64,000 nt of DNA from the NCBI GenBank assembly GCA_030704615.1, contig CM060734.1, positions 63,823,426 through 63,887,425 of the forward strand, written 5' to 3'. The notes beneath the pieces are model-generated. The model did no database searches. It had not been told where the DNA came from and saw nothing but the letters and a program-made list of their open reading frames with translations. A program made the position numbers and the translations under genes. The DNA is from Takakia lepidozioides. Lineage: Eukaryota; Plantae; Bryophyta. This document shows positions 16,526-62,961 of this stretch, piece by piece. Position 1 is the stretch's first letter; each line of letters starts with the position of its first letter.

Positions 16526-16529
16526 GGTA

Positions 16530-39903: not shown

Positions 39904-42814
39904 GTGCCACTAGTTGTTGGGGAGAGTGCCGGTTCGAGCACTAGCAATACTAGTGGGTACACGAGACGAGGTGTGCGGTTTAGGCCACCTTCACCTCCTG
40001 TGTCTTCTACGGAAGGTTCTGTTCGGATTGTGAATCAGGAGGACTCACACCGGCGGTGCAAGTTGTTTCCTTGCCATTATTGTGGGACACAATGGAGGAG
40101 ATGTATGGAGCTACTAAGGGGCCTCGTAGGTACTCTGGAGCTGTGGGCACCATCGAGTTGGATGATTTTATCCAAGAGTTTGATAGTTGGTGTGATTTGC
40201 AGCAAATGCGCAATCCACAACTATTTACACCTTTCACGGCATGGAAGGGGCTGTTTCAGCACCTTGAGGGGCCGCCTATGGATGATTACCATGAGTTCAG
40301 GCGGGGGCATGAGGTTGAGATTGAGGAGTGGAGGATGTACTGGTCACCCGACTATGTCTCCATCACTAGGGGCACTAGAGCCACGAGGGCATTGGCTACA
40401 CCTACCGCTGCAACGGCTGCTTCAGCAAGCAGCAGTGGGATTAGTGGGACTGGTGATACCAGAGCTACGACGTCCACCCAAGCTACTACTGCACCAGCAC
40501 TAGTGGCGGTGCCTGCCTTCAACCCTGTTGTGGACTTCTTCGAAGAGTTAAGAGGGAACTACCAAGGGGTGAGGACAGAGAAGTTGCGGAGCTTGCAAGA
40601 GTTCCAACGGAAGCCGACTGAGAGCTTGAGGGAGGCTTTCACTCGCATGAGGCGCTTGATAAATGTAACCCAAGGGGTTACAGAAGCTCAGGCAGTCCAA
40701 TTCTGGTATGGGATATTGGACAAGGAGCTGAGGAGAAGGGTGCGGGATGCAACTCTCCTACAAGCGGCCCAACCCACCTTAACAAATGTGTTTTTGCTGG
40801 CAGAGCGGCTAGAGCTCAACATGGTGGAGGAATGAGTGGTCATGGTGGGATTTGCTAAGGAGACCCCACGGGGTAGTGGTGCTCCTAGCCAACCACTACC
40901 TCAACGTGCTCAAGGCAACAAGGGGGTCCAGGTGAAGCCAGGGAAGGACAGAGAGGACCTCAGATGCAGGGGTCTCTCCCTTCATTTGCAGGCCAACAAC
41001 GGGTGGATGTGGTGTGCTGGACATGTGGAGGACCCCATGTCAAGAAGGATTGCCTAGAGGGAGGCAAAGGGCTAGCATATGCACAACCTGCACAGTTGCG
41101 GTGTGGGCATTGTGGCAAATATGGGCATGGAGAGGCCCAGTGTTATGGTTTGCATCTTGAGTTGCGCCCAGGCCAGTTCCAAGGGAACAATGGTGGCTGG
41201 GGGCGGGGTGGAGCAGCCCAGAGAGGACGAGGTGGCCAGGCACGAGGTGCAGGCCAAGGGCAAGCTCAACATGGCCAAGGACGCAGAGGTCAGGGTGGTG
41301 ACCAAGGCATGGCCAACCGGCTTCAGTAGCTAGAGCAAAGGCTCGCTGCCATGGCTACAGCTCAGGTGGTACCGGCTCCAAGGCCGGATGGTCCACCTCC
41401 TGCTCCTGATGGAGGAGATATGGGAGGCATAGGATTTATGTGTGGGGCAGCACTACCACTAGTGCAGGTGGAGTCTGCTGCAGCCGTGACTCGAGGAGCA
41501 GCACGAGTTCCTGAGCCACGAGGTGCAGAGGTGGAGTTGGATCCACAGCGTGGGGAGGCAAGCCGTCAGGCTAGGCTTCCTCAGTCATTCACATTGGTGG
41601 AAATATTGTCGACGCCATCTATGGCACCTAGTTCTCGCCCGACTGTTACCGAGGCGGAGGTTACTATGCCATTGGGGAGAGCTACACGGGTAGCACCACT
41701 ACCTAGTGTTGCCAAGGCTACGGCAGCTAGTGTGCTGCTGGGAGCGGCCACATCTATGTGCCAGGCTCCATTGTTCTCGGCTACCATGATTGCGACGCCG
41801 GGGGTAAGACCAGCTGAGGTGTTCAGACTGGCAGCTACACTCTGTGAGAGTGGGGAGGTTACTTCATCTTCTGCGGAGATAGTGGGAGGTGTAGTGCCGG
41901 AGGGATCCTCGGATTTGAGGGTCAAGACTGCCACGGCGGCGCCATGGCAAGCTGCAGCTGCCAGGTTGATGGAGCTGCTAGCTAGGCCAGCCATTGAGCG
42001 CACCATGGTGACACCTAGAGTTGTTTTGTTAGACAACCAGGATGGCATTTTCTGTTTGAGTGGACCGATAGGCAAGAGGTACCGGCCACTGCGGGTCTTG
42101 TTGGACTCGGGAGCTCAGCCATTGATGCTGGGCAAAGCTGCTATTGCAGGCTTGGGCCTCACGGAGGCGGATATGGAGCCTTGTCCTTTCTAGATATAGA
42201 CGTCTCTGGGAGGATTGGAGCAGGCTCGGGGCATGACACGGCATGAGTTGGCTATCAAACTTCGGCCGGATCACCCTACAGATGGCTCAGTGATGCGAGC
42301 CAAGGCCATTGTGACAGACGCAGTCTCGTACGATGTCCTGGTTGGTGGGGCAGTGTTGTACCCCATGGGCTTCACCCTGGATTTTTGGGAGGAGTCAGCT
42401 TCCTATAGGCTTGGATGGCAGTCAGGGAAGGGCCGGCGTGTGCAGCTCCCTGTGACGTTCATAGGAGGAGTTGCGGTTGCCCAACGAGGCAAGATGCCGA
42501 CACTGGCAGCATTCACAGCTGCAGTGACTTGGCCTCAAGAGTTGCTGGAGGGCAATGCCCATGGAGAGGATGTGCCACCTCTAGCAGAGCAGGATGACAT
42601 ACATGGTGCGGCGGAGTTGCCTGCCATGGTTGCTCATACTCCATTGTGGGGTACGAGCAAGGATTTGCAGCAGATTGCTGATTGTCGTGTGCAACAAGCC
42701 TGGGTAGAGGCTTTTGTACCGTCAGGAGAGGAGGAGAGTGCAGGTATTGCACCAGGACCACCTCAGTTGTCACCATTGGATACCACACATATTGTGTGGG
42801 AGTATCCGAATGAA
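39904..42814 (+). pseudogene. gag and aspartic protease of the outer gypsy element
   Basis: LDDFIQEFDSWC, FQRKPTESLREAFTRM, zinc knuckles CWTCGGPHVKKDC and CGHCGKYGHGEAQC, protease VLLDSGA...YDVLVG. Stops at 40833, 41327 and 42191. Confidence 0.88.
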
Positions 42815-45696
42815 GGCATTTGCCTTCTGGAATTGTTTGGCGGGATCAGCACCGGATTGGCTACTGTGCTACATGCAGGTGTGCGGGTAAGGCGTTATGT
42901 AGTGTGAATGCAGGGGAGTAACATTGAAAATTTTGTTGGGAATCAAATTACGGCATTGGTGAAGAAGGGAGTGCCTGGTACTAATGTCGGGAGGGAATTA
43001 CCCAGGCCTACAGGTAATTCCATGGGAACACTATGCTCTTGCTCTGCCAGGACAAAATATGGCTAAGTCATAACATGCGCATTTTTCATCCTTGGAATGA
43101 ATGATTTTCGTCGCGTATGTTTAACCTAGAAACTCGAGCTGAGAAAAACGAGGAGGAAGACGACGGGCAACTCTTCACAGCTGCTGCCGTGGAGTTGTCA
43201 GGCAGGCTGGCTTGGGAACTTACACCTGCGCCATGTGAATCAGCTTGCCTTAAAGCGCGACGTTAAGGGATCTGCTTGGCATTTTGTGCAAAGAGAAGCG
43301 GTGCCTCTTTCTGCGTGGTAATAATCAATTTTGAAAGCTGAGCAGGTGCTAAGAGCGGTGCACTACCGCTGCCGCCATTGTCTTGAAGGGTATAGTTATG
43401 AGGAGATAGAGCGCAGCAACAGCTGTTGGGGAATGAGAAGTGCAGGCTGGTGTGGATGCGACTCGGGTTATCTGTAATTAAGACTTGTAGTTACCTTCTG
43501 TCTTAGAGCTGTAGGAGCACATCAATCCTTAGGGCAGAAGTACACATGTAGAAGGATAGGGTAGAGGTTGGCAAGCACAAGGATGTTGCCAGCTGATGAA
43601 GCAAGCCGTCATGACATGATGAGAACTGGAATCAAGATGAGAAGAAGCGTTGAATATGGCTGATGACAGCGATGGTGAGGTGCCAGCTTAGCAGGCAGAA
43701 CCACCGCTTCACACGAGTATAAGACAGATAAGTTCTAAGAGTGTGGGCTTCTCTTTTTGGGCACTTAGGAATGACTTTGTGAAGTTTTTGGAACTGTCTC
43801 TTGTATCTGCTGAAGGGGACAAAAATGTGAGGAGTAGAAAAGGCCTTTGAAAATGGAATGAAGACACTGGAATTCAAACCAGGATAGGGTGGAGATGGAT
43901 GCACCTGTTGTTACACTGTCATTAGGAAAAAGATAGAGGGGACAAGGATAGCTCACATCAGGGTCAGAATGGTTGCTGTTGTTGTGTTCATTTTCTTTAT
44001 TTTCAGTGTCTTCAGCCAGCATAAGCAAACCAGCCCTGGATGTTAAAACAGTGGAGCCAGTGTAGAATTAGCTTGGTGGATAAAGGAGAACAGGGATGGT
44101 CAGACAGAAACGGATTTGAAGAACTGAGAGGGATGACGTGGATGGGGAAGAAAAGTCAATACTGTTTTGGGGTTTGGATCTGATTTATAGAAGTGTTCTC
44201 AACATGTGAATGACTGAGGTTTGCATTTGAGGAGAAAAAGAGAGCTGTCAGGGTGGGTGATTTGAGATCTGTAGAAGGGTTGTGAAGCACCTTGGCCAAA
44301 TAGGATCCACTTGGGGAAAGATAGTGCAAGGAACAGTCACTGGAGAGAGAGAAAAAGAGAAAGACTGACAGAGGGGCAGATCATGTCTTGTAACCAAGGT
44401 TGACTTCAATGATGGATGCACTGGATGCCTGGCTGGATGTGCATTTGCATTGCATCATAGCCATGCTGTTGTGAAAAAATGAGGAATCCACACACCAAGG
44501 AAAAAGGATTTGAGAGAAAGAAAAAGTGAAAAGGGAGAAGGGTTGATGAGGGATGGACAAATGGAGAGGCAAGGTCAAGAAGACATGAACCCTGAATGAT
44601 CAAACTAGTGGGCCTGCAGTTCATGGCAGATCTGAGCTGTCCACCCGCCTAGACCGTGATCTCATTACAAAAAGGGGCTTCCGACGTGTTGCAGACCAAG
44701 GGCACTGCCCACAAGGGCAGTGTTTATCACTGACATAGGGCTGATTGCATCACTGAATACATCGTGGCAGCATAGTTGGTGCTGTACCTGCAGGTAGAGG
44801 ATGTTGTGTAAAAGGTAGAACCAAGAGTGAACAACAATTTGACTCCCCATCCATGTCTTCTCTTCCGCTGCGGCGTGGATGAGGATTGCTTGAACTCTGA
44901 TCACGAAGGAGCTGAGGGAAACCCACAGCCAAGTGACGACAGTGGGACAGATTAGAAGAACCTTCTTTCTTTTGCTCCGCTTAGAATGGAAGGAAGCACA
45001 ATTAGAATTATACAGAAGGGGATTCACGCCCCTTCTTTTTCACACTACAGTTACTTGTATTGGAGAGGGATGAGACTGCACGACCTGTCTCACTCCGTCA
45101 TGTTGCTCAGATGGTGCAGCAGTACCCTGAGTTGTTGCCGGTGTCTGCAGTTCGTGGATACCAGCAAGCCTTGCTAGCAGACATTTTGTTCCTGGGGGCG
45201 CAGGATTTGGAGCAGGTGGGCTCCATTGATTTGGTAGTGGCATGTTGGCCCTGCCAAGGGCATTCATCAGCCGGACATGGCAATGGATTGCGAGACTCGA
45301 GGTCGGGTCTGTTTTGGGAGATGGTGCGGGTTTTGCGCCACTTGCAGCTTCATCAAGCTGTATCTCCAGCATACATCTTAGAGAATGTGCCACTGATGGG
45401 CGATTCTCGAGCCAGGGTGATGGCCAGTGTGCATCAAGTCCGGTCGTGGCTTGGGTCAGCAGTGTTGCTGGATGCAGCTGCAGTGGGCTCACGGGCTCAT
45501 CGTCCACGGCTATGGTGGACTAACTTGATGCCACCCACACTGCTCAAGCGTGCATTTGATGGGGTGCAGCGGCCAACACACCTCACAATGGATAGCATTT
45601 TGGACACATGGAGGCAGTCTCAACGTGTGAGACACGATGACCGTTCGCCTTTGGCAATGGTCAACAGGGTGGGTCAACCACGAGTAGCATTACCTA
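42815..45696 (+). pseudogene. C5 cytosine DNA methyltransferase domain (DNMT3-like) within pol, split by a 2.15-kb insertion and truncated at the 3' end
   Basis: 42815-42897: LLELFGGISTG (motif I), in frame with the protease. 45054-45696: ERD (II), IDLVVACWPCQGHS (IV), RSGLFWE, YILENV (VI), DAAAVGSRAHRPRLWWTN (VIII). Confidence 0.9.
42898..45049. mobile_element. 2152-bp non-coding TG...CA insertion (solo LTR or Ginger-like non-autonomous element)
   Basis: 11-bp perfect inverted termini TGTAGTGTGAA / TTCACACTACA, 4-bp TSD GTTA (42894-42897, 45050-45053). Removing it restores the methyltransferase sequence RRYLY. Confidence 0.88.
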
Positions 45697-46744
45697 CATG
45701 CCGCACTAACCGTGCACATTGTGTGGGGTGAGGCACAATCCTCACCCAACCATCCTCCCACACTCGAAGTAGGTGTATCCCCTCCCACTTGAACCTCTTG
45801 GCTCGTTGCAGGATCTGATCCCTCTCCTTGGCAGTCACAGTGGCTGTCGTGTCTCCCGTGCGGAGGTAGCCCAACACAGCCGAATCCTCATGTATATCTC
45901 TGGCACCACCTGGCTCATCACTAGCCTCAGGGTCCTCAGACACTCTATCTACAGTCATCCCTGTTGTAGGTCCAACCTGACCTCCCGATGCCAAGATACA
46001 CAAAAATGCAGATGCGTGCCATCCCAGCACCATCTCCTTGTCCGTCTCACCATGCCACCGAGCTCCGGTGTCATCCTGTTGGCTCGTGCATGGATTGCGA
46101 CTCAATCCATCCGCATCCCGATTGACCAAACCCGGTCGATGCACAACCTGAAAGTCATACTCCCGGGGTATGAGTGCCCACTGTGCAAGCTTCCCCATAA
46201 GCTTGTCTGACTCCATCAAGCACTTGAGTGGTTGGTGATCCGTGACAAGGGTGAAGAGATTGCCGTATAGATAGCACCTGAAGTGTGCCACGGCCCACAC
46301 TGTAGCTAAGCATTCTCCCTCATATGAGCTATACTTAGACTCTGCAGCGTTGTTTGAGCGGCTAGCATAAGCTACTACGAACTCTCTTCCCTCATCATCC
46401 ACCTGTGTGAGCACCGCTCCAAGCCCCAGCATGCTCCAATCTGTATGCAGCTGAAAAGGACGCCCCCTGATAGGTCGTCTCAAGATGGGCGCCGAGGTCA
46501 ACCTCGCCTTGAGCTCTTTTTAAAGCTCATTCCTGCTCATCTTCCCACTGCCACTTCTGGTCCATCTTGGTCAGCTTGGTTAGAGCCTTTGCAATGGCAC
46601 TAAATCCCTTAACAAACCGTCTATAATAGATTGCTAACCCCATGAAAGCTCAAACTCGGCTCACATCCGTGGGGCATGGAATCTGTGCAATGGCCTCTAC
46701 CTTAGTCTGCTGCACCCCCAATCCTCAAGGATATATCATGTGGC
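45697..46744 (-). pseudogene. Inverted duplicate of the RT C-terminus, RNase H and linker of the outer element
   Basis: FQLHTDWS...VAYASRSNNAAESKYSSYEGECLA...VTDHQPL; reverse complement of ~59719-60770. Confidence 0.9.
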
Positions 46745-49700
46745 CCCGGGGGGTGCACTCTTTATAAACTGTGCGTATCACGTGCGTTCGTCGCCTAATA
46801 AAAAAACCCCCTGTATACGGGTCCTTGGATAATTTATACCCCCTCTGTACATACTTTTTGAAGAATATAAAATCCCCTCCTGTAAATATACAAAAATTTA
46901 CAATTTTCGAAAAGTACCCCCTTCTGTATGTATATTCTCATTTTTCATCATTAAAAATAACCCTCCAATATGTATATGTATGTTTTTATATTATATCGAA
47001 TTTATTCATTTAAAACATAATAAAATCTAACAAATTAATTAAAAAAATTATTTGCCTTTGATAAAGTTGTCAAAGACTTTTCGGTCATTTGCATCAAGAA
47101 CATATGTGTTTGACTTGACATTGTACTTTAAACATGCTAACGCGATAATGGAATCCAAATCAACCATCATGTTATCCGTCAAATCGTACGTATAGACCCC
47201 TCCTCGAATTTTTTGGTACCATGCTAACCCAATCTCCATATGAGAGGGACGCTCCAATAAATCAACAGAATCCCTACATTCTACAAACCGCTTATTGATT
47301 TTCTTCCGCATTCTTTGAACCCTGCCCAAATACCAAGTGCCTTTGGTTGCTCCTCTGCAGGTTTTCCCTGGTCTACCATTCCTGTTTGTAGTTTGGATCG
47401 CAGTCTCCCCATCAACAAAAAATACAGCACAATCCGAACCCAATCCCAAGCTCGTGGCTTTGTTGCTGGTAGTTGGTTTGTTTTCTCGACAAAACAACAT
47501 CGATGCACTTCTTACTCGTGTCAATCTATCCTTGGATAGAGTAGGGTTGCCATTGAGTTGGCTAACCAAAGTGCTTTTGAATATGGTCTTCCCGTCTACT
47601 TTGACAAATGGAACCACTGCCTTCGATCCATCTTTCTCTTGTTCAAACTCATCAATGACAGCATCCAGAGTATGTCTCAATTCACTTTGAACAAGTACCT
47701 CTTCTGCATGATCATCCAAAGGTTGGCTCAAAACATCCTCCATTGAATTCGAAGGCCCGCACACCAATTCATCTTCCACGACCTCATTTTGAATATGTGT
47801 GTCTGCATTAAGAGGACAAATAGAATCTATGGCATTGACATCATCACCCTCCTCTTCCATGCTTTTGAATAGCTCGACCTCCATTTGTCTCTCAATTGTC
47901 CATGGCTCATTCCACCAATCCAAGTTTGTTGCTTTGTTTGGTTTCATCCCAAGTTTATGGCATAAAAGTTGCGCTTCTAGAAATCCAGTTTTCAAAGCCT
48001 CCACAATGCAATCATCCGATTGGACAGTAGAAAAGTCGGACAAATCAGCAAGGGGGATACCTGGCTTCTTCTCCAAAGAAGACCATATGTGTTCTTGTTT
48101 CTTGTGAGCTCTTGAGAACTTGGGTCCTTTTGGATTTGCCTCGAACTCGGATATGCGTGTTAATGCTCCCGCACTCTCAATCAAATCACACCCGTCATAT
48201 GTCCTCTCATTCCGTGACATACCTCCCACTTTGCTGAAGAATATTTCACACACATCTGAACCAACAAGGCTCAAATGAACTTGCACATGATTAAACTTAT
48301 CCTTGAACAATTTGATAAGTAGAACCACGTAGTGGCATGAAATTTGTAAATCCAAGTATGCTTCCCTGCTAATGAAGAAGGATTTCAGATTATACACCTC
48401 GTGCTGGAATAGCCACAACTTCCACAATCTGAAAAAAAAATGATACCTTCGCAGCAGATTGTACCCTCTCACACAATGACATGTGAGGAGACAAAAAAAT
48501 GTCGATGTAGCATGAAATGATGTATAGGTAAATTTCAGTACCTTTGGTCCTCTCTCTTCGATGATTCACAGTTGATTGTAACTCCCTCAAACAAGCTTGC
48601 ACCTTCCGAGATGCCAGTCGTTGAGCTGCTGCCCAATTCTGTCGATCTTCTCTTTTGATATCACATTCCCGAAGTCCATGCTTGTCCACTGAAAATGAAT
48701 GGTAGACCAATAACACATGATTCAATGTAGCAACCTCATCACCCAACACCAAAGTCCGTGATGCACTGTCCAAGGGATTTACCAATTTTTTCCCATTGTG
48801 GATGAAGTCCTGATCATGGAGTCCGTATATATCTCCCCCGTTGCACACTCGACCTGTAAACAACCATCCTTCCCAAGGGATGCAAAATCTATTTCCAGCC
48901 CCATTGGCATAATCTTCTAACATCACTTTTCTCCTCCTACTATCTCCGTCTGAAGCATGCCCAATTATAGGCCCAACCACGTCCCTCACATATTTGTCCC
49001 ACAACTGTCTCACCACTTCCCATTGTGATCTCACAAAATTGTTGTCAAATCTATTGCAAGTGAGCTGGATTACCAATACCAATCGAGGTAACCGTACATG
49101 TAGAGGATTTGCTATCAACACTCTAGCATAATGGGCAACCACATTGTTTTTGAATGCCTCCACAATATGTTGGTACCCTGATTCCCCTTCTCCCACTTGC
49201 ACCACAAAATTTGAAATACATACATGGTTGTCTTGAAGCCCACAAACCCGAGAAAGGTGTCATCCCTAGCAATCCAACGTACCAATCGCTTCACAACAGT
49301 TTCATCTTCGGCCACCATCACTGGGATGCTTCCCAATGGAATATTTGCATCTTCCATCACATCTCTGTAAATTCCAGCCACATGCTGAAATATATCATCC
49401 GTTTCTCCCGCTCTATACTTCAAACCTTTCCTCAAAGACCGTTTGTAGTATCAATAGAAGGACCCCCCACATTTGAAGCCAAAAAATGATGCAATCTCGG
49501 ACCCCCCCAAAGCTGCACAGTCTCAAACATTGTTTTTGTGCTAGTACCATACCTCTTCCCTTGTGGAGACCTGTCAATATTCTTGCCCATATCAACAAAA
49601 AATCCCACAAACTTTCTTTTCCTTCAAAATCCCCCCTCCTATGTGCATCAACAATATCACGACAAAATTTGAGAACATCTCCTCTTTCAATTGCCTCAAT

Positions 49701-51210
49701 CCCAGACTCCTTCAAACTCCTACATCGCACAGACAATGATGCCACTTTGGTCCTGGCCTCCCACAATTTGAACCTCAACTGCCTCAACTCCTGTCTGTTT
49801 TTGTAAACTTGTTTGACAATCTCCGCATTTCCAAGATATGACAACCTTCTTCCCTTGCCAGTATCTCTCTCCCCTCTACATTCCATGGCACCTCTTTCTC
49901 TATATACCCTCATTCTGAAGTCATTTTCCAAGGGAATGGAAGAACATGCTGAACATCTCAAGTTTGGAAATGGCTCCCCATCCAATGACACTCTAAAACA
50001 ATCCGCGTGCCAAAACGTACCAACAACCTTATGCTCTTGATTGTTTAGAGTGATGGTTGCATTTGTCAACGGCTCGACATACCACTTCTTTCCTCCCTTG
50101 CTATCTTGAAGGAATGGTTTCAGACTTATTCTCTGCTGGTTGTACTCCCACCATTCATCCCATAGGCCCCAACACAAACTGCTTCCACAATCTCAAATCT
50201 GTTTCCAGGATTGTCCTCACAAAACCGAGCGACTTCCTCTAATGCCTCCTTCACCCTGTTCTTCTTTGCGTCTAATGCTTCATCTGCATTTACAGGGCTG
50301 ATGACACATTGTGATGAACCCTTCCCATGACGCCTCTCATAGGCTATGCGATGCCCCTCACTCCTCAAATGAGATCTCATAAAGTTTGCACATGCATCAT
50401 ATGGTTTGTTTTTCCCAGACCGTGCATAAACATCCTCACACTCAACACACCATATGTGGAACATTGCTTGTCCTTGTTGATCCTTTGTCATCAGCTCAAA
50501 CTTGTCACATCGTCCTTCTGCAGAGATTTTCCTTTCAACGGCTCTAATCTCTTTCTGCCATTTTTGAATATCGTTGGATGTAGCCAACGTGCTGCACAAT
50601 CTACCATATCTCTGCTGAAGTGCATGCTCATGTGCATGGTCTTCATTTCCACCATTGCCAGCAAAGGGTGTATCAGGGTCCATCCTCATCTTGGTAGACA
50701 CTGGTGTCGGGTCCTCACCTGGTCTGTCCTCATGCAAGATCGTAGAACCACTGGAAGATAGAGGTCTTTTCAATCCTTGGTCCCCATCATTTTGGTCTGA
50801 AATCTTAATGTGTACAGTATCCCCTTTCAGAACCATCCTCTCTTCTTGCTTGGCTGAAAGGACACTACCCCCCATGGAAAGGAAATGAAATTTTGCTGAG
50901 ACAAGCTCATCACCTATAATTTCTGCTCGGATGCATTTGTATGTGACACCTTGCATAGTGAACACAGAACCAAGCCTGTTTGGTGATGCATCTCCTCCAA
51001 CAAGCAGGACTTTTACTTCCAACCCTTCTTCCATGATGAGTTCACCTGCAAAATGCAATGAAAATATTTCAAATCAGACCTTGATAGACCAATAACAAAG
51101 CACCCGGGTTGGAAGGTTCCAAAGTCCTGTTTTATACAACCCTATAGGCTGTCCAAGTAGGAACTACGTTCATAAGAGGATGAAATGTATACAGAAGCAA
51201 GTACCTGATT
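46745..51210 (-). mobile_element. P-superfamily (P element/THAP9-like) DNA transposon, copy 1; transposase 51034 to 47048, frameshifted
   Basis: Motifs VAEDET, GHASDGD, DFIHNGKKLVN (DxxH..K..N), DRQNWAAAQRLAS, TEIYL...IDIF and GSDVCEIFFS. N-terminal C2H2-like finger. Terminus CCCGGGGGGTGCACTC. Confidence 0.72.
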
Positions 51211-51539
51211 GATGAGTTTGATGTTGTTAATTTTTTGCTGCTGCTATTGACCAAATGCTGCTACTTCCACTGCTGGTAGCCCTCTTGGGTGATCCCGAAC
51301 CCACAGTCCATCCTTGCATCAGCGGCTAGCCCTCCCTCCACACTAACATATTTAAATACAAAGTTATGTCAAACTCCCTACGATGTTGCATGAAGAAAGC
51401 TCACCTTGTTGACAATATTGTCCCACCGCTGTGGATCAAATTTATAGAACTCCTGCCAGCGCTGTTCCTTGCTCCAAATCTGGCCCTCTTGGATGATTTT
51501 GCACCCACGATCCTCTCCCTGCATCAACAGCTACCCCCT

Positions 51540-54160
51540 CCCTCCACACTAACAATGCGTACATCATGCCTCTGCAGCTACTACTGTGGCTTCCAGTTGA
51601 CCATCTACCCATCCAGGTTTCTTGTAGCTATCATTCCACATGGAATCATAGGTAATCTGGAGCTTGGAATCCGCCATCTGGAAATCTAGGGACGACTCTG
51701 ATAATAGGGAAAAACAGGCTGAAATGTGTTGAAGAAGGTACCTTCATTAGCAGTCCCTTGTTCTATCTATTATCTTTTTTTAGGTACTGTCATGCTACCA
51801 CACTCGGCAGCAACTTGCAAAGTCACTCCAGAGCACCGCAGATCCACCCAACGAGCTAACTTACAGAATTCAATACATATGCTTCAGGGCTGAGTCTGAT
51901 GAGAGGGAAAAACAGGCTGAAACAGGTCAAACCAGAAGGTCAGGCTGAAATACGTTGAAGAAGGTACCTTTCATCAGCAGTGCCTTGCTTTATCAATTGC
52001 GCTGTTGCCGCTGCTGTTTCCAGTTGACCATCCACCCACATTGTCCCACCATTGACTGGGGTCAGAAAAGTGTCTCATTCCAAAGCTTCTCTTCATCTCT
52101 GTGGTGCTATTGTAGGGTGGCTTCAATGCCCAAGTGGGCAAAGGGCTCCATCAGGAAGATATCATTGGGTCTTCTGGTGAGGACGAGCTGAATTCTAATG
52201 GCAGACGGTTAATTAACTGTCTGGAAGAGCTTCAGCTTTTGACCTTGATTAACAAGACAAGAGGTGACCAAGTACAGTGGACTCGTGAGAAATCCCAAAC
52301 TGGGGAACGTTCCATTGTGGACTATATCATAATGGACAAAAATTTGTTCCCCCAGTGTGCCAATGTGTTGATCGACAGAAGTGATATTGGTACCTCTGAC
52401 CACTTTCTGGACTGAGATCAAAAGGTGTTTTCCCAAGGCCAGAGTAGAAGAGATTCTCAAGGACCTGGACCTGGATCCGCAAGTCTTGACCCTGCTGGAT
52501 AAATCAGACTTAGAGGCTGTAGTGTCCAAAGCCATGTCTATTGCCATGAGATTGTCTGATGAAAATGAAGTTAGGCATAAAACTTCCCTGAACTTGTTTC
52601 TAGTCAGTGACATGGGGGAGGACATCTTGGATGACCTCAAGGGTCCACCCACTCTCGGCACTAGACTGAAATTTAAACTCAGGGAAGGAAGCCTACCTTT
52701 GAACATGAAACAGAAGCAGAGAGGAAAGGGGGAGTGCACTCTCCCAAGTGAACCTGCATCATTCAGTTGGCAAGACCGTGGCTGAAAAATTGATCCATTT
52801 GAAGACACCACGGTGCAGCTGAGCACAGCCTGACATGACAACAATTAAACATCATACTGAGACAAGAGAAGCAGTCAAGGACACAGTCATGCATATGGCA
52901 GCAAGTGATCACCCTTCAAACATGATTGAAAACATACATGAGGTCAAAGGCAATAAGAAATCAGCGAAGGGTACTGCAGCTAACAGTTGGAGTGTCTTTA
53001 AAGACAAAGGGAAGAGAAAGAAACACTTCACTGGCAATGAGGGGAGGCTGTGGAAACGCCAAGAGGATGGCACAAATGATAGAAATAACAGGCTGGGCAA
53101 AGGATCCTGCAGGAAGAAGAAAGGGTGTGTCAGCATGGAAAGGACGTGCGGCTCATTCCAACAGAAAGGGGAACATGAGTCTGAGTGAGAGGGAAAAACA
53201 GGCTGAAACAGGTCAAACCAGAAGTCAGGCTGAAATACGTTGAGAAGGGTACCTTTCATCAGTCCCAGTGCCTTGCTTTATCAATTGCGCTGTTGCCGCC
53301 TGCTTCGTTTCCAGTTGACCATCCACCCACTATTGTCCCCCCATTGACTGGGTCAGAAAAGTTTCTCATTCCAAAAGCTTCTCTCAAATCTCTGTGGTGC
53401 TATTGTAGGGTGGCTTTCAATGCCCAAGTGGGCCAAGGGCTCTCATCATCAGAATATATCATTGGGTCTTCTGGTGAGGACGAGCTTAATTCTAATGGCA
53501 GACGGTTAATTAACTGTCTGGAAGAGCTTCAGCTTTTGACCTTGATTAACAAGACAAGAGGTGACCAAGTACAGTGGACTCGTGAGAAATCCCAAACTGG
53601 GAACGTTCCATTGTGGACTATATCTAATGGACAAAAATTTGTTCCCCCCAGTGTGCCCAATGTTGTTATCGACAGAAGTGATATTGGTACCCTGGTACCC
53701 CTTGACCACTTTCTGGACTGAGATCAAAAGGTGTTTTCCCAAGGCCAGATAGAAGAGATTTCTCAAGGACCTGGACCTGGATCCGCAAGTCTTGACCCTG
53801 CTGGATAATCAGACTTAGAGGCTGTAGTGTTTACCAACTTTGAAAGTCTCGAGGCTGAGCCAAAAGCCCAGGCCCCTCCTGAGGCCTAGTTTTTGGGCAA
53901 ATCACACACAGCAGATTGATTCTGTGTGAAGTGTTTTCTAGAGGATATCTGGAAACCCGGATTAATACTTATACTTATCGATGGTATCTTACTACCAACG
54001 TCGCCCTGTTCCTTTGTTCCCACTGAACTGGGCGCGGGGTCAATGGCCAAGGCTACGGCAAACAATGTCTTATGAGTACAATCTCATCCTTATCATCCCT
54101 CGCCTTTTGGAAAATTCCACCATAATTGAAGGCAATTGGTTGTTGTACTTAACTGCACGA
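51540..54160. other. Mosaic of PDF-motif/PPR-linker fragments (minus) and LINE fragments (plus)
   Basis: Minus strand: PRFPD...ITYDSMWNDSYKKPGWVDGQL and DEEKLWNE..SDPSQWWDN. Plus strand: NSNGRRLINCLEELQL...SIVDYII...SDH, LGTRLKFKLREGSLPL, and a LINE-like 3' end near 54030-54060. Confidence 0.7.
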
Positions 54161-56179
54161 ATGTTCCCCTTTCTGTTGGAATGAGCCTCACGCACCCAAC
54201 ACGACATGCATGAGCACGCACACACCCTTCTTCTTCCTGCAGGATCCTTTGCCCAGCCCTGTTATTTCTATCATTTGTGCCATCCTCCTTTGCCGTTTCC
54301 ACAGCCTCCCCGTCCCCTCATTGCCAGTGAAGTGTTCTTTCTCTTATTCTTCTTTGTTTAAGACACTCCAACTGTTAGCTTGCAGTACCCTTCACTGATT
54401 TCTTATTGCCTTTGACCTCATGTATGTTTTCAATTTCAATCATGTTTGAAGGGTGATCACTTGCTGGCCTATGCATGACTGTGTCCTTGACTGCTTCCTT
54501 CTTGTCTCAGTATGATGTTTAATTGTTGTCATGTCAGGCTGTGCTCAGCTGCACCGTGGTGTCTTCAAATGGATCAATTTTCAGCCACGGTTTTGCCAAC
54601 TGAATGATGCAGGTTCACTTGGGAGAGTGCACTCCCCCTTTCCTCTCTGCTTCTGTTTCATGTTTCAAAGGTAGGCTTCCTTCCCTGAGTTTAAATTTCA
54701 GTCTAGTGCGAGAGTGGGTGGACCCTTGATGGTCATCCAAATGTCCTCCCCCATGTCACTGACTAGAAACAGTTCAGGGGAGTTTTATGCCTAACTTCAT
54801 TTTCATCAGACAATCTCATGGCAATAGAATGGCTTGGACACTACAAACTCTAAGTCTGATTTATCCACCAGGGTCAAGACTTGGGGATCCAGGTCCAGGT
54901 CCTTGAGAATCTCTCTACTCTACGTCTGGCCTTGGGAAACACAACGACCTGTGATCTGAGAAAAAGAGTTCAGATGATGTCATGAAGTACCAATAACTCA
55001 CTTCTGTCGATCAAACACATTGGCACACTGGGGGAACAATTTTTGTCCATTATGATATAGTCCACAATGGAACGTTCCCCAGTTTGGGATTTCTCACCGA
55101 GAGTCCACTGTACTTCTTGGTCACCTCTTGTTCTTGTTAATCAAGGTCATCAAAGCTGAAGCTCTTCCAGACAGTTATTTAACCGTCTACCATTAGAATT
55201 CAGCTCGTCCTCACCAGAATGAGCCCAATGATATATCTCCTGATGGAGCCTCTTTGCCACCACTGGGCATTGAGTGCACCCTACAATAGCACCACAGAGA
55301 TGAGAGAAGCTTTGGAATGAGACACTTTTCTGACCCCAGTCAATGGTGGGACAATGTGGGTGGATGGTCAACTGGAACAGCACAGCAGCGGCAACAGCGC
55401 ACAAATGATAAAGCAAGGCACTGCTGATGAAAGGTACCTTCTTCAACGTATTTCAGCTGAGGGCACCTTCTGGTTTGACCTGTTTCAGCCTGTTTTTCTC
55501 CCTCTCATCAGACTCAGCCCTGAAGCATATGTATTGAATTCTGTAAGTTAGCTCGTTGGGTGGATCTGCGGTGCTTCTGGAGTGACTTTGCAAGTTGCTG
55601 CCGAGGTGGTAGCATGACAGTACCTAAAAAAAGATAATAGATAGAACAAGGGACTGCTAATGAAGGTACCTTCTTCAACACATTTCAGCCTTTTTTCCCT
55701 ATTATCAGTCGTCCCTAGATTTCCAGATGGCGGATTCCAAGCTCCAGATTACCTATGATTCCATGTGGAATGATAGCTACAAGAAACCTGGATGGGTAGA
55801 TGGTCAACTGGAAGCCACAGTAGTAGCTGCAGAGGCATGATGTACGCATTGTTAGTGTGGAGGGAGGGGTAGCTGTTGATGCAGGGGAGGATCGTGGGTG
55901 CAAAATCATCCAAGAGGGCCAGATTTGGAGCAAGGAACGCGCTGGCAGGAGTTCTATAAATTTGATCCACAGCGGTGGGACAATATTGTCAACAAGGTGA
56001 GCTTTCTTCATGCAACATCGTAGGGAGTTTTGACATAACTTTGTATTTAATATGTTAGTGTGGAGGGAGGGCTAGCCGCTAATGCAAGGATGACTGTGGG
56101 TTCGGGATCACCCAAGGGCTACCAGCAGTGGATAGCAGCATTTGGTCAATAGCAGCAGCAAAAATTAACAACATCAAAC

Positions 56180-59100
56180 TCATCAATAAGGTACTTGCTT
56201 CTGTATACATTTCATCCTCTTATGAACGTAGTTCCTACTTGGACAGCCTATAGGGTTGTATAAAACAGGACTTTGGAACCTTCCAACCCGGGTGCTTTGT
56301 TATTGGTCTATCAAGGTCTGATTTGAAATGTTTTCATTGCATTTTGCAGGTGAACTCATCATGGAAGAAGAGTTGGAAGTAAAAGTCCTGCTTGTTGGAG
56401 GAGATGCATCACCAAACAGGCTTGGTTCTATGTTCACTATGCAAGGTGTCACATACAAATGCATCCGAGCAGAAATTATAGGTGATGAGCTTGTCTCAGC
56501 AAAATTTCATTTCCTTTCCATGGGGGTAGTGTCCTTTCATTTCAGCCAAGCAAGAAGAGAGGATGGTTCTGAAAGGGGATATTGTACACATTAAGATTTC
56601 AGACCAAAATGATGGGGACCAAGGATTGAAAAGACCTCTATCTTCCAGTGGTTCTACGATCTTGCATGAGGACAGACCAGACGAGGACCCGACCCAGTGT
56701 CTACCAAGATGAGGATGGACCCTGATACACCTTTGCTGGCGATGGTGGAAATGAAGACCATGCACATGAGCATGCACTTCAGCAGAGATATGGTAGATTG
56801 TGCAGCACGTTGGCTACATCCAACGATATTCAAAAATGGCAGAAAGAGATTAGAGCCGTTGAAAGGAAAATCTCTGCAGAAGGACGATGTGACAAGTTTG
56901 AGCTGATGACAAAGGATCAACAAGGACAAGCAATGTTCCACATATGGTGTGTTGAGTGTGAGGATGTTTATGCACGGTCTGGGAAAAACAAACCATATGA
57001 TGCATGTGTAAACTTTATGAGATCTCATTTGAGGAGTGAGGGGCATCGCATAGCCTATGAGAGGCGTCATGGGAAGGGTTCATCACAATGTGTCATCAGC
57101 CTGTAAATGCAGATGAAGCATTAGACGCAAAGAAAAACAGGGTGAAGGAGGCATTAGAGGAAGTCGCTCGGTTTTGTGAGGACAATCCTGGAAACAGATT
57201 TGAGATTGTGGAAGCCACAATTGGAGACTATTCGCAGTTGGGTTCCATAAGGATTAGGTGCCCACTGGATTCGAAGTGGCTACTCTTGTTTCCAAGGACA
57301 GGTTCTTTGCAATCTTCTTTGACAGAGCATGTGAAAGGAAAAACTCATGTCGATGCAGAGATTTGCCAAAAGGTTGGAAGTAGTGAAGGACCTTGCAAAA
57401 AGAGAGGAAGGCCTCCAAAGCCTATGATTGCCAAAGATGTAAAGCAACGGGATCTAAGCTCTTTCTTGGTCAGTCAACCTGTGTTGCCGTCCCCACCACT
57501 TGACAATCCAATTGTGGCATCAACAATGGGAGCATCCTCGTCACAAACTCCATACGCTTGTGTTGACGCTGCCCAACGGGGAGATCTGATTGAGGATTGA
57601 CAATTACAGCAAAGGTCCCAATGCAACAAAGGAAGAGACAGTTTGTGTTGGGGCCTATGGGATGAATGGTGGGAGTACAACCAGCAGAGAATAAGTCTGA
57701 AACCATTCCCTTGGAATGTGATATCAAAAGAGAAGATCGACAGAATTGGGCAGCAGCTCAACGACTGGCATCTCGGAAGGTGCAAGCTTGTTTGAGGGAG
57801 TTACAATCAACTGTGAATCATCGAAGAGAGAGGACCAAAGGTACTGAAATTTACCTATACATCATTTCATGCTACATCGACATTTTTTTGTCTCCTCACA
57901 TGTCATTTTGTGAGAGGGTACAATCTGCTGCGAAGGTATCATTTTTTTTTCAGATTGTGGAAGTTGTGGCTATTCCAGCACGAGGTGTATAATCTGAAAT
58001 CCTTCTTCATTAGCAGGGAAGCATACTTGGATTTACAAATTTCATGCCACTACGTGGTTCTACTTATCAAATTGTTCAAGGATAAGTTTAATCATGTGCA
58101 AGTTCCTTTGAGCCTTGTTGGTTCAGATGTGTGTGAAATATTCTTCAGCAAAGTGGGAGGTATGTCACGGAATGGGAGGACATATGACGGGTGTGATTTG
58201 ATTGAGAGGCGGGAGCATTAACACGCATATCCGAGTTCGAGGCGAATCCAAAAGGACCCAAGTTCTCAAGAGCTCACAAGAAACAAGAACACATATGGTC
58301 TTCTTTGAGGAAGAAGCCAGGTATCCCCCGTGCTGATTTGTCCGACTTTCTACAGTCCAATCGGATGATTGCATTGTGGAGGCTTTGAAAACTGGATTTA
58401 TAGAAGCGCAACTTTTATGCCATAAACTTGGGATGAAACCAAACAAAGCAACAAACTTGGATTGGTGGAATGAGCCATGGACAATTGAGAGACAAATGGA
58501 GGTCGAGCTATTCAAAAGCATGGAAGAGGAGGGTGATGATGTCAATGCCATAGATTCTATTTGTCCTTAATGCAGACACACATATTCAAAATGAGGTCAT
58601 GGAAGATGAATTGGTGTGCGGGCCTTCGAATTCAATGGAGGATGTTTTGAGCCAACCTTTGGATGATCATGCAGAAGAGGTACTTGTTCAAAGTGAATTG
58701 AGACATACTCTGGATGCTGTCATTGATGAGTTTGAACAAGAGAAAGATGGATCGAAGGCAGTGGTTCCATTTGTTGCAGAAAAGTAGACGGGAAGACCAT
58801 ATTCAAAAGCACTTTGGTTAGCCAACTCAATGGCAACCCTACTCTATCCAAGGATAGATTGACACGAGTAAGAAGTGCATCGATGTTGTTTTGCCGAGAA
58901 AACAAACCAACTACCAGCAACAAAGCCACGAGCTTGGGATTGGGTTCGGATTGTGCTGTATTTTTTGTTGATGGGGGAGACTGCGATCCAAACTACAAAC
59001 AGGAAAGGTAGACCAGGGAAAACATGCAGAGGAGCAACCAAAGGCACTTGGTATTTGGGCAGGGTTCAAAGAATGCGGAAGAAAATCAATAAAGCGGTTT

Positions 59101-59636
59101 GTAGAATGTAGGGATTCTGTTGATTTATTGGAGCGTCCTTCTCATATGGAGATTGGGTTAGCATGGTACCAAAAAATTCGAGGAGGGGTCTATACGTACG
59201 ATTTGATGGATAACATGATGGTTGATTTGGATTCCATTATCGATCGCGTTATGTTTAAAGTACAATGTCAGTCAAACACATATGTTCTTGATGCAAATGA
59301 CCGAAAAGTCTTTGACAACTTTATCAAAGGCAAATAATTTTTTAATTAATTTGTTAGATTTTATTATGTTTTAAATGAATAAATTCGATATAATATAAAA
59401 ACATACATATACATATTGGAGGGTTATTTTAATGATGAAAAATGAGAATATACATACAGCGGGGTACTTTTCAAAAATTGTAAATTTTTGTATATTTACA
59501 GGAGGGGATTTTATAATCTTCAAAAAGTATGTACAGAGGGGGTATAAATTATCCAAGGACCCGTATACAGGGGGTTTTTTTATTAGGCGACGAATGCACG
59601 TGATACGCACAGTTTATAAAGAGTGTACCCCCCGGG
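56180..59636 (+). mobile_element. P-superfamily DNA transposon, copy 2; transposase 56361-59337, lacking the catalytic core
   Basis: Reverse complement of copy 1. Retains 57216-57639 (CPLD...H...H finger, KKRGRPPK AT-hook), which copy 1 lacks, but lacks ~48670-50108. Ends GAGTGTACCCCCCGGG inside the host RT. Confidence 0.72.
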
Positions 59637-62011
59637 GGTATTTGAGTGCTTGAGAGCGCACGGATTGAAATTGCATCCGGGGAAGTGCAAGTTCTTCCAC
59701 AACCAGATTGAGTATCTGGGCCACATGATATATCCTTGAGGATGGGGGGTGCAGCAGACTAAGGTAGAGGCCATTGCACAGATTCCATGCCCCACGGATG
59801 TGAGCCGAGTTTGAGCTTTCATGGGGTTAGCAATCTATTATAGACGGTTTGTTAAGGGATTTAGTGCCATTGCAAAGGCTCTAACCAAGCTGACCAAGAT
59901 GGACCAGGAGTGGCAGTGGGAAGATGAGCAGGAACGAGCTTTTCAGAGCAGCACTCAAGGCGAGTTGACTCCGGCGCCCATCTTCGAGACGACCTATCAG
60001 GGGGCGTCCTTTTTAGCTGCATACAGATTGGAGCATGCTGGGGCTTGGAGCGGTGCTCACACAGGTGGATGATGAGGGAAGAGAGTTCGTAGTAGCTTAT
60101 GCTAGCCGCTCAAACAACGCTGCAGAGTCTAAGTATAGCTCATATGAGGGAGAATGCTTAGCTACAGTGTGGGCCGTGGCACACTTCAGGTGCTATCTAT
60201 ACGGCAATCTCTTCACCCTTGTCACGGATCACCAACCACTCAAGTGCTTGATGGAGTCAGACAAGCTTATGGGGAAGCTTGCACAGTGGGCACTCATACC
60301 CCGGGAGTATGACTTTCAGGTTGTGCATCGACCGGGTTTGGTCAATCGGGATGCGGATGGATTGAATCGCAATCCATGCACGAGCCAACAGGATGACACC
60401 GGAGCTCGGTGGCATGGTGAGACGGACAAGGAGATGGTGCTGGGATGACACGCATCTGCATTTTTGTGTATCTTGGCATCGGGAGGTCAGGTTGGACCTA
60501 CAACAGGGATGACTGTAGATAGAGTGTCTGAGGACCCTGAGGCTAGTGATGAGCCAGGTGGTGCTAGAGATATACATGAGGATTCGGCTGTGTTGGGCTA
60601 CCTCCGCACGGGAGACACGGCAGCCACTGTGACTGCCAAGGAGAGGGATCGGATCCTGCAACGAGCCAAGAGGTTCAAGTGGGAGGGGATACACCTACTT
60701 CGAGTGTGGGAGGATGGTCGGGTGAGGATTGTGCCTCACCCCACACAATGTGCACGGTTAGTGCGGCATGCCCATGAGGAGTTGGGGCATTTTGGAGTGC
60801 GACGCACTCACAGTTTACTGCAGGGGTAGTATTGGTGGCGTGGTATGCATACAGAGGTGCAACAGTTCGTGGCTAGGTGCATGGTGTGTGACAGGGTGCA
60901 TGCTTCATTCAACCCCTACACCACAGTTGCATCCTTTTCCAATCATGGGATTGGGCTACAGATGGAGTCTTGACTTCGCAAGACCGTTGCCACTGACTAT
61001 ACGCCACCACAGATATGTGTTGGTGATGGTGGAGCACTTCTCCAAGTGGATTGAGTTGGTTCCATTGCCTGACAAGGCTAGTGAGGGGGCTGCGTATGCA
61101 TTCCTGGATCGTGTGCTTAGCCGATTTGGTGCTCCAGCTGAGGTACTCACGGACCAAGGGAGAGAGTTCTTGGGGGAGTTTCAGGCTTTGTGTGATAAAG
61201 CCTTGATAGACCACCGCACCACTTCTCGGGATCATCCCGAGGCCGATGGCTTAGCAGAGAGAGTTGTTCAGACGGTGAAGAGGGGTTTGCGCAAGTATGG
61301 CTTGCAGAAGGGACACCTAGGAGATTGGGATCTTCAGGTTCCTTGGTTAGCCATGGGCTACAGGTTCAGCAAACAAGCATCACTTGCCTCCTTCTCACCA
61401 TATTTCCTTCTCTTTGGCCGAGAGCCGGATTTGCCTACAGCCATTCGTAGGGACACTGCTCAAGTCCTTAACCTTGACGATCCGGACATGTGGGTACGTG
61501 CATGTGATCAGCGTGCAGAGTTGTTCAAGAAAGACATTCCCATGGCTTTTGAGAACCTTGCCATTGCACAGCACCGTGATACGTTGAGGTATGCCACTAT
61601 ACGTGGTGGAGGATATCGTCCTGGGGTTTGGAGGTTTAGCCCTGGTGACTATGTTTATTTGCAGCAGATTGCTCCTACGACCCTGGATGTCACTGCAGGG
61701 CATGTTATTCTGAGGGTTTGAGAGGTGTTGCTCTCAGGGGTCCTGATCTTGGAGGGTCGGGATGACATGACTTGGAAGGACCATGTGCGTAATTGTGCGC
61801 CATGTCACCTTCCCAATGTTGATGGCAGAGTTGACCCAAACTTGGCAGTGGTACCTGCAGGTTTGAGGTGCATGCTCTGTGGGTCTGCCAAAGGGGCAGC
61901 CACCATGCTGGTGTGTGATCGATGCTCAAGAGGTTGCATATGGGATGCTTGACACCACCTCTTGAGAGGGTTCCTGATGGAGATTGGTTGTGTCCACACT
62001 GCTTGGGATAG
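59637..62011 (+). pseudogene. RT C-terminus, RNase H, DDE integrase and C-terminal PHD finger of the outer element
   Basis: GLKLHPGKCKFF, YYRRFVKGFSAIAKAL, AYASRS, HEELGHFG...CMVC, RWSLDF, LTDQGREF, HPEADGLAERVVQTVK, and CMLC...CDRC..HMGC...DWLCPHC (with a frameshift). Confidence 0.93.
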
Positions 62012-62260
62012 TGGCAGTGGACATGACTGGAGGCAACTAACAAGACATGGGAGGCCAAGCTCATAGGAGTCAATACATGAGATCCCAAGCTCAAGTTCAC
62101 CGGTTGCAAGACGGCGACTAACGATGGGGCAACTCTTGCACCCGGCCTCTTGATCTATCGAGTTTGAGTGTAGTAGGGATAGTGGTGGAGGACTTAGTGA
62201 GGCTATGGTCACTATCACATCTTATGGCTACCTAGACTTAGAGGGACCTAAGCACCAGCT

Positions 62261-62270
62261 AGGGGGGCGA
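62261..62270 (+). other. Polypurine tract
   Basis: AGGGGGGCGA, 1 nt before the TG that starts repeat B1. Confidence 0.75.
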
Positions 62271-62271
62271 T

Positions 62272-62957
62272 TGTGTGGACTAGTGACTGCCATAGTAGGC
62301 AGCATAGTGGCAGCCTAATGACTGACTAGTTGTAGCCTAGTGGCTGGACTAGTGGTGGACTAGTGATATACTAGTGTGTGGCGTGCACATGTGTTGTGTG
62401 GTTTTGGACAACGATGTAGTTGTGTAGCGATATGTATGCGCACGACAGCTGTCAAGTTATTTTACCACTAGTGTGAAACTAGCTAGGAAATAGCTAGCTT
62501 TTACATATTGACATTTGGGATTGGCCCAAGTGTCAATCAAGGGGTCAAGGCAGATTTAGGCCCTGGAGTTGTTATCTTCACGGCAAGCGCGAGAGGCTCA
62601 TCTTTCTCGAGTTGAGCCTCACCGCGCCTAGCTATGGCGCCGTAGTGTGGATTCCCCATGGCGTGGGGTGCACTTGGTTTGACTTGTATTTGAGTGATGA
62701 GGGTATATATGCATGAGTTTATGCTTCAGCTTTGTGAGCTCTCATGAGCTTGTGCTTGTATGTCTTCTTCTTCTTTATCATTGTGTGGACTAGTGACTGC
62801 CATAGTGGGCAGCATAGTGGTAGCCTAGTGACTGACTAGTTGTAGCCTAGTGGTTGGACTAGTGGTGGACTAGTGATATACTAGTGTGTGGCGTGCACAT
62901 GTGTTGTGTGGTTTTGGACAGCGATGTAGTTGTGTAGCGATATGTATGCGCACGACA
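62272..62957 (+). repeat. Right terminal repeats B1 (62272-62447), gc, A2 (62450-62780), t, B2 (62782-62957)
   Basis: B1 and B2 are 176-bp near-identical copies (TGTGTGGAC...CACGACA); A2 matches A1; the B1/A2 junction is the palindrome GACAGCTGTC. Confidence 0.93.
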
Positions 62958-62961
62958 CTGA

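Follow-up and report, generated by a model that had tools for sequence, protein, structure and literature searches.

A P-like DNA transposon with atypical ends in the bryophyte Takakia lepidozioides

Introduction

Do DNA transposons of the P superfamily occur in land plants? P elements occur in Chlamydomonas, and fungal P elements carry the RepeatMasker label 'P-Fungi'. In the portions available to us of the papers cited here by PMC number, the superfamily is represented by three insect families with 7-8 bp target duplications (PMC3698922), distant homologues are placed in amoebozoa and Aureococcus (PMC3985635), fungal P entries in Repbase come from Pucciniales and Allomyces only (PMC5751038), and a 2022 review lists six terminal inverted repeat (TIR) superfamilies for land plants, P not among them (PMC9033089, Table 1). 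The question is raised by a 64,000-nucleotide stretch of the Takakia lepidozioides genome (assembly GCA_030704615.1, contig CM060734.1, positions 63,823,426 to 63,887,425 of the forward strand; hereafter the window), in which the original prediction, made from the letters alone, had placed two copies of a divergent P-like transposase at 46745-59636. We consider it highly probable that the window holds one copy of a multi-copy DNA transposon, whose transposase of ~1,470 amino acids (aa) has a predicted P fold and likely acts by P-type cut-and-paste; the copy in the window is itself decayed and dead. The fold of the transposase, its signature residues and the target duplication, the last of these taken from relatives, place the lineage in the P superfamily, and it is not a canonical P family, because both the THAP domain and the CA terminus are absent. 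Here, we describe the predicted enzyme, its ends and its relatives, then the rearranged locus in which this copy lies, and weigh the alternative readings where the evidence bears on them.

A transposase with a predicted P-type core

Every one of the spaced motifs that had been read in P order can be located in that order in the left of two inverted arms, on the minus strand (Table 1). The gene is broken in both arms, and each arm lacks a different piece of it: the left-arm gene has three frameshifts (near 49442, 49243 and 48432) and has lost ~428 bp at 50181, with them the AT-hook and the second finger, and the right-arm gene is without ~1,440 bp of the core between 57712 and 57713. Combining both arms by coordinate arithmetic gives ~4,412 bp, or ~1,470 codons, close to the ~1450 estimated earlier and within the range of six intact full-length relatives (1,423-1,530 aa), which have the same domain order; in several relatives (L005, L010) nothing interrupts the core open reading frame (ORF). 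Two intron-flanked blocks that encode similar short peptides precede the transposase ATG (51035-51540, minus strand; 55870-56360, plus strand). They have the same host contig depth as the element, and may be 5' exons or another small gene of the element.

An AlphaFold model of the relative P0004, which is 60% identical to the core in the window (55-sequence alignment; mean predicted local distance difference test score, pLDDT, 80), has the Drosophila P transposase structure 6P5A as its top Foldseek match (E 1.3e-10), with RAG1 as the next family (1.3e-5). Superposed on 6P5A (VIA), the model gives a Z of 26.6 and a root-mean-square deviation of 4.1 Å over 410 residues at 14% identity, the next match being Transib at 11.4, and in a comparison with 48,161 chains P transposase again stands at Z 26.6, the next at 8.9. 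The match takes in the helix-turn-helix (HTH), the split RNase H and the helical insertion domain (chain 134-569). P transposase thus lies far above the rest, Transib/RAG1, hAT and MULE-like enzymes included, which supports the divergent P-like lineage proposed at the outset. ESM features of the core point the same way, with a Basidiomycota cluster nearest, followed by P/THAP9 clusters (similarities 0.92-0.95). Among sequence profiles, PF12017 (Tnp_P_element HTH) scores above its threshold in 1 of 40 relatives and weakly in three others, and profile A2, searched against the PDB, has 6P5A as its best match (E 0.021) apart from matches to acidic stretches; PDB sequence searches with the core ORF and with A1, A4 and A5 returned nothing useful.

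In Drosophila P transposase the catalytic triad is D230/D303/E531, GTP is a cofactor, cleavage is staggered by 17 nt, and the GTP contacts are D528, K385, K400, V401, S409, F443, D444 and N447 (PMC7776569). In an alignment of 156 sequences of the lineage, the catalytic residues are retained as D in 126/127 and 153/156 sequences, as D(2)H in 153/156 and 156/156, and as E in 141/141. Between the first two D lies an insertion with Cys and His residues conserved across the family (C 127/132, H 130/132, C 131/133, C 145/153), which accounts for a longer distance between these residues (119-134 residues in 9/9 proteins) and may hold a metal site. GTP-contact positions, mapped by spacing only, look partly kept: a D528-like D is found in 127/143 sequences and a D444-like D in 45/45 of the plant clade, the K400 position is N, and the N447 position is L in 30/45 plant-clade sequences.

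Ends, target duplication and subterminal motifs

The terminus CCCGGGGGG reported for this locus is real, and reads CCCGGGGGGT(G/A)CACTC at 46745 (plus strand) and at 59636 (minus strand). Three other host flanks and the empty Gypsy site together fix it at three C, at 59636. The partner of the 8-base target GGTATTTG beside it was not found in the window. All 80 related loci were scanned for the end motif, and in 35 of them the surroundings of the gene were searched for inverted repeats. C(C/T)CGGGG starts 13 ends in 10 of the 80 loci, and both these loci and the window have CCCGGGG or CTCGGGG. The TIRs of the lineage are 15-26 bp long, and an 8-bp target duplication, with a sequence that differs between sites, flanks two of the three two-ended relatives, namely L005, which is complete, with perfect 26-bp TIRs and an exact duplication, and L031, which has two extra C at one end; L002-L004 have the CCCGGGG end in common and lie in three different flanks. 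The element in L005 (192-6287, 6.1 kb, with an uninterrupted ORF) is the best candidate for an activity test.

When 15 flanks are strand-symmetrised, 16 of the resulting 30 ends have G at position 1 (0.25 expected; binomial p 0.0008), a post hoc count over mixed hosts that is only suggestive of a target preference. Within the ends, ACCC(C/T) boxes number 37 in 12 subterminal stretches, as against 13.5 in shuffles (maximum of 300 shuffles, 25), for a motif that was picked post hoc; together with the subterminal ATCACGTGCGTTC motif, they are candidate binding sites of the transposase.

Relatives and taxonomic range

A search with the core ORF recovered 71 longer relatives from 1,259 candidates and 113 of similar size from 747. 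Of these 184 matches, the 19 with a species name all come from liverworts or ferns (Riccia 12, Calypogeia 2, Adiantum 5). None is from a seed plant, which is weak evidence for absence there, because most of the matches have no species name. A profile search found 5,669 clusters (50% identity) at E<=0.001, which may include other P-like families, and 966 at 1e-30, and one for species-named distant relatives returned 12 proteins, none with a species name. In viral contigs and prokaryote genomes, 13 and 58 pattern matches, respectively, yielded no confirmed relative.

In a 156-sequence FastTree tree, all species-named sequences, from liverworts and ferns, fall together with their neighbours in a single clade (support 0.997), and in a 64-sequence tree that includes the window, the plant clade has a support of 0.983. 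There, the window groups with P0001 and P0002 (0.986) and is not part of the subclade to which the liverworts belong (0.985); a link between the window and Adiantum has no support (0.126). The pattern fits vertical descent and does not show it, because most hosts are unnamed and there is no true outgroup. L031, L027 and L044 have the same end motif and either do not belong to the plant clade or show only a distant alignment with it, and two loci of the lineage are labelled as marine metagenome. The P-like lineage proposed for land plants is thus present in liverworts and ferns, and it is much wider than land plants. Fungal P elements are likewise non-animal P-like transposases, and the nearest ESM neighbour of the core is a Basidiomycota cluster (0.95).

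Extra domains

Three features of the protein are new here and go beyond the original prediction: a head predicted to be ubiquitin-like, the insertion with conserved Cys/His inside the catalytic domain, and a tail predicted to resemble BAH. The N-terminus had been described as two C2H2-like fingers and an AT-hook in place of a THAP domain, and this is borne out, with the second finger and the AT-hook retained in the right arm only. Ahead of them, a second model (relative L012, 400 aa, pLDDT 81) has a ubiquitin-like fold at residues 1-83; among the matches listed, most are beta-grasp domains (best Z 7.3, with no Foldseek E below 0.001), and the window N-terminus aligns with this part of L012 at E 6e-12. 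An N-terminal ubiquitin-like domain is therefore predicted. At the other end, residues 971-1092 of the P0004 model have BAH proteins as all 11 of their best matches (Z 6.5-7.3, over 77-98 residues), with Tudor, chromo and PWWP barrels close behind at 6.4. The predicted beta-barrel aligns with the BAH domains of EBS, AIPP3, Rsc2, DNMT1 and ORC1 (5Z8N, 7CCE, 4BB7, 7LMK, 4DOV); an ESM search with the domain gave at best 0.76, which is a lead only. The domain is retained across the family, including outside the plant clade, and is predicted to be BAH-like. The Cys/His region (P0004 97-200) and the two fingers had no match in the whole-model searches. Further C-terminal chromatin- or DNA-binding modules are found in P0061, P0062, P0091, P0096 and P0111 (PTM/DIR17 Tudor, E 1e-8 to 1e-9; SAP, E 6e-10; C1, E 5e-6; weak PHD), so that capture of reader domains recurs in the lineage.

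Compared with Drosophila melanogaster P (6P5A/6PE2), the HTH, the split RNase H with its D, D, E and D(2)H, and the helical insertion are alike in order and fold, as are the short TIRs and the 8-bp duplication. In contrast, the protein of the lineage is about twice as long. Its N-terminus has the predicted ubiquitin-like domain and, after it, the two fingers and the AT-hook; the first and second catalytic D are separated by ~45 additional residues that include the conserved Cys/His; and its tail is predicted to be BAH-like. The elements end in C(C/T)CGGGG, and the unbroken core ORF of several relatives is a further difference from Drosophila P. THAP9 and Pdre elements likewise have a P-type core, short TIRs (13 bp in Pdre2) and an 8-bp duplication (PMC10983969, PMC7776569), whereas the CATACC start and the THAP domain of Pdre2 are both missing here (PMC10983969).

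One insertion within a Gypsy element and its probable inverted duplication

Comparison of the window with itself reveals a single ~15-kb inverted duplication. Past the terminus, both arms also hold ~1 kb of the same Gypsy flank (reverse transcriptase, RT, and RNase H), so the two transposase copies represent one insertion, whose 3' end is seen twice. The interval 46745-59636 is therefore not a single element bounded by TIRs, and what had been taken for separate copies are the two arms of one duplication. At this locus there is one insertion, with one surviving end and two arms that carry different deletions. An end-motif scan found no 5' terminus in the centre or elsewhere in the window. The Gypsy sequences on the two sides appear to be halves of one host element, which seemingly carries a C5 DNA methyltransferase ORF (PF00145, E 1.2e-12; 42200-42907 and 45006-45696, plus strand) between protease and RT, interrupted by an insertion of ~2 kb. 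Summed contig depth suggests that this is a very high-copy Gypsy family, and a PHD-like Cys/His motif follows its integrase (near 61870-62010).

Transitions predominate among the outer differences between the arms (ratios to transversions of 12:3, 11:9 and 8:0 for the Gypsy flank, the 3' part and the 5' coding part, respectively), overlaps at the joints are 1-4 bp, and indels climb toward the centre, from 4 gaps in ~1,050 bp of Gypsy flank to 52 in the innermost 1.3 kb. A break may have been repaired by microhomology-mediated template switching, by which an inverted copy of the downstream 7.5 kb would have been inserted in place of the start of the Gypsy RT and the 5' end of the transposon. 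Two other origins were considered. Foldback TIRs of the Galileo type are rejected, since the arms reach ~1 kb into the Gypsy flank and meet within the upstream region of the element; Galileo and 1360/Hoppel, which are P superfamily members with an intronless transposase as here, differ in their 7-bp duplications (PMC3698922), and the inverted arms in the window are a rearrangement of the locus. Hybrid-end insertion driven by the transposase is not favoured, as no joint lies at a terminus; the 83-bp deletion adjoining the left terminus could be transposase-related.

The duplication was compared with short-read contigs of the host, from three DNA runs of two studies on the same organism, which may include the source sample. 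They show at least three other insertion flanks besides that of the window (as loose ends, among the matches listed), and one contig of 1,444 nt spans the stretch lost from the left arm and runs into the core lost from the right arm; the family is thus multi-copy, and fuller copies exist. Summed depth is higher over the terminal 250 bp than over the interior of the element, a deeper terminal coverage that, set beside Drosophila P, is compatible with internally deleted copies. The same contigs bear on whether the inverted duplication is an artefact of assembly, from a fold-back long read or from two alleles joined head to head, with the deletions and many of the indels being sequencing noise; such a reading concerns the locus only and is compatible with a real P-like element. 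The rise of indels toward the centre speaks for it, as do the absence of two of the three left-arm frameshifts from the contigs of all three runs and the presence of both deleted stretches in a single contig, although this undeleted contig may derive from other copies. Read error would not, however, be expected to produce outer-arm differences that are mainly transitions; some changes seen in the contigs are common to both arms and others, including substitutions, are private to one, and at the left joint one part of the Gypsy runs, over a 2-bp overlap, into another part of the same element. We judge an artefact possible and the less likely outcome; the inverted duplication is probably real, with consensus noise added.

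Weighing the assignment

Several results weigh against a P-type element, beginning with its ends. Canonical P elements start with 5'-CA as a general rule, and this terminus is absent from the window and from the 13 ends of the 10 loci; the end motif itself is seen in only those 10 of 80 loci, many of which are too short, and L022 and L060 have 10-kb flanks and none; and L010 has both ends and no duplication, perhaps as a mosaic assembly. As to the protein, structure was modelled on relatives and not on the broken protein of the window, no ORF of the window and none of the six full-length relatives reaches a Pfam P-family cut-off (best, TNP-like_GBD, E 0.13), and profiles A1 and A5 did not find 6P5A by sequence. 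The distance between the first two catalytic D is 73 residues in Drosophila (D230/D303, PMC7776569), well below that found here. No THAP domain matched in the ORFs of the window, in the six full-length relatives or in 40 further relatives, and a sequence profile of the C-terminal domain did not find BAH, the structural Z scores of 6.5-7.3 being in the common range of the tool. The trees contain members of the lineage only, and among the host contigs listed none crosses the joints of the duplication.

An alternative placement is in a separate superfamily, sister to P, which would share the fold but differ in its ends, in its DNA-binding head, in the metal-site insertion and in the tail, possibly with no need for GTP. 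The missing CA terminus and THAP domain, the 14% identity to 6P5A, the Pfam P models that mostly miss the lineage, the family-wide Cys/His insertion and the N and L at the K400 and N447 positions all fit such a placement. The fold match, however, covers the HTH, split RNase H and insertion domain together, D(2)H and the length of the duplication agree with P, one member exceeds the PF12017 cut-off, and THAP is in any case confined to animals (PMC7776569). We regard a sister superfamily as improbable, and retain the lineage within P.

Membership of another described superfamily (CMC/Plavaka, Transib, hAT, Kolobok or MULE) is more improbable still. The model has further matches in RAG1, Transib, Hermes and ISCth4 (Z 7-11), and an 8-bp target duplication is typical of hAT elements too; yet all four structures lie at least 15 Z units under P, and no ORF of the window attributed to this element, and none of the relatives scanned, has a Transposase_21, hAT or MULE Pfam match, whereas the CACTA element in the same window scores 4e-66 on Transposase_21. 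CMC is set aside on the missing Transposase_21 match and Transib on a Z of 11.4 against 26.6 for P, the Plavaka enzyme not having been directly compared, and hAT on a Z of at most 8.8 for Hermes. Kolobok elements duplicate TTAA; the duplications here are of 8 bp and differ between sites, the Kolobok enzyme likewise not having been directly compared. Least credible is an immobile, domesticated host gene derived from a P-like transposase, to which the extra chromatin-type domains and the annotated hypothetical genes in Riccia, Calypogeia and Adiantum could be assigned (a contig covering 47219-48750, from a run guessed to be RNA, was not used as evidence), and which is already largely refuted by the at least four different host flanks; an intact terminus, an insertion within the Gypsy RT frame and target duplications in relatives also speak against it.

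Proposed mechanism

In the P-type cut-and-paste that we favour, the two C2H2-like fingers and the AT-hook, which stand where THAP does in Drosophila, would bind the ACCC(C/T) boxes and a CACGTG-containing motif within each end, and the short terminal repeat, rich in C and G, would be read by the HTH domain. From the fold and the invariant residues, cutting of the ends and their joining to the target are predicted to be carried out by the D, D, E triad with D(2)H, and joining at positions 8 bp apart would produce the 8-bp duplication seen in relatives. As for GTP, the insertion domain has the P fold and only some of the contact positions look kept. More speculatively, the BAH-like tail may tether the complex to chromatin, and the ubiquitin-like head may mediate oligomerisation or turnover. 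A broader account, which we put forward as doubtful, would have an old P-type branch inherited in land plants since the split of bryophytes and vascular plants, still multiplying in seedless plants and lost from seed plants, with a P engine joined to a ubiquitin-like head and to a BAH reader, the reader directing new insertions to silenced chromatin rich in retrotransposons, and perhaps with no GTP cofactor.

Feature coordinates and other elements in the window

Table 1. Positions of the transposase gene, its motifs, the ends and the surrounding rearrangement, in coordinates of the window
Feature	Position	Strand	Remarks
Transposase gene, left arm	47048..51034	-	whole catalytic core
Transposase gene, right arm	56361..59337	+	finger 2 and AT-hook kept; many 1-bp indels
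Split RNase H core	48233..49315	-	D (AEDET), Cys/His insertion, D (SDGD), D(2)H, helical insertion domain, E (SDxCE)
AEDET motif	49295-49315	-	left arm
HASDGD motif	48942-48959	-	left arm
DQDFIHNGKKLVN motif	48777-48815	-	left arm
DRQNWAAAQRL motif	48615-48647	-	left arm
GSDVCEIFFS motif	48233-48262	-	left arm
C2H2-like finger 1	50351..50452	-	weak zf-C17orf113 match in relative P0179, E 0.0014
C2H2-like finger 2	57250-57348	+	right arm only; degenerate in this copy
RGRP AT-hook	57400-57417	+	right arm only
N-terminal domain, predicted ubiquitin-like (beta-grasp) in a relative	50798..51034	-	
C-terminal beta-barrel, predicted BAH-like in a relative	47075..47449	-	
3' terminus (CCCGGGGGGTGCACTC), left-arm copy	46745..46760		83 bp of adjacent Gypsy flank gone
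Same 3' terminus, right-arm copy	59621..59636		original junction to Gypsy RT
8 target bases (GGTATTTG) beside the end	59637..59644	+	expected surviving half of target duplication
Subterminal region	46775..46970	+	ATCACGTGCGTTC motif common to L002-L004 and L010; repeated ACCC(C/T) boxes
Left arm of inverted duplication	45697..53176		outer joint to the Gypsy's own methyltransferase ORF, 2-bp overlap
Right arm of inverted duplication	54161..60770		
Centre	53176..54160		third, indel-rich copy of 51891-52525 plus 330 bp unique within the window
Likely host Gypsy, 5' part	39984..45696	+	gag, protease-like ORF, C5 DNA methyltransferase ORF
Host Gypsy, 3' part	59637..62960	+	RT end, RNase H, integrase, repeat resembling a long terminal repeat (LTR)

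The remainder of the window is rich in other transposons. A plant-type CACTA/EnSpm element (13875-22265, plus strand) carries Transposase_21 (E 4e-66), DUF4218 and DUF4216, and has head-to-head ORFs on the minus strand, including an NLI-interacting-factor-like phosphatase (PF03031, E 2e-16), that are possibly cargo. A second Gypsy (28248-38377, plus strand) has two long extra ORFs after its integrase (660 and 573 aa) with no Pfam match, and repeats at 26656-27571 and 38417-39294 resemble its LTRs; GC-rich arrays of a 10-bp unit lie beside it and within it (25345-26500 and 34212-34550). Many short fragments belong to one high-copy family like long interspersed nuclear elements (LINEs; 51540-52880, 53176-53830, 54500-55830, 17107-17356, 22157-23872 and 62960-63080), several of them stacked in the upstream region of the P-like element, and degenerate pentatricopeptide repeat (PPR) sequences are found amid the transposons (9370-10420, 24080-24235 and 62989-64000). 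The PPR fragments and the plant-type CACTA element are in keeping with a land-plant host.

Novelty and implications

A literature search of titles and the beginnings of abstracts, with Repbase, Dfam and Yuan and Wessler 2011 outside its reach, found no P elements reported in land plants, as the original prediction had expected, and within the same limits no CCCGGGG-ended P elements and no BAH domain in a P transposase. The portions of PMC7466625 and bioRxiv 2021.11.30.470311 available to us hold nothing on this P-like lineage. We lean slightly towards the clade being undescribed in print; a database entry may exist. Pfam overlooks the lineage, and liverwort and fern annotations list its members as hypothetical genes, so that it inflates gene counts and is missing from repeat libraries.

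The same core combined with other ends, another DNA-binding head and partly changed GTP-contact positions amounts to a natural experiment on the P mechanism, through which the generality of GTP dependence and of the 17-nt overhang becomes testable. If the BAH-like tail does bind histones, it would be the DNA-transposon counterpart of chromodomain targeting in Gypsy elements, and intact, apparently recent relatives such as L005 are candidates for a plant-derived P-type tool.

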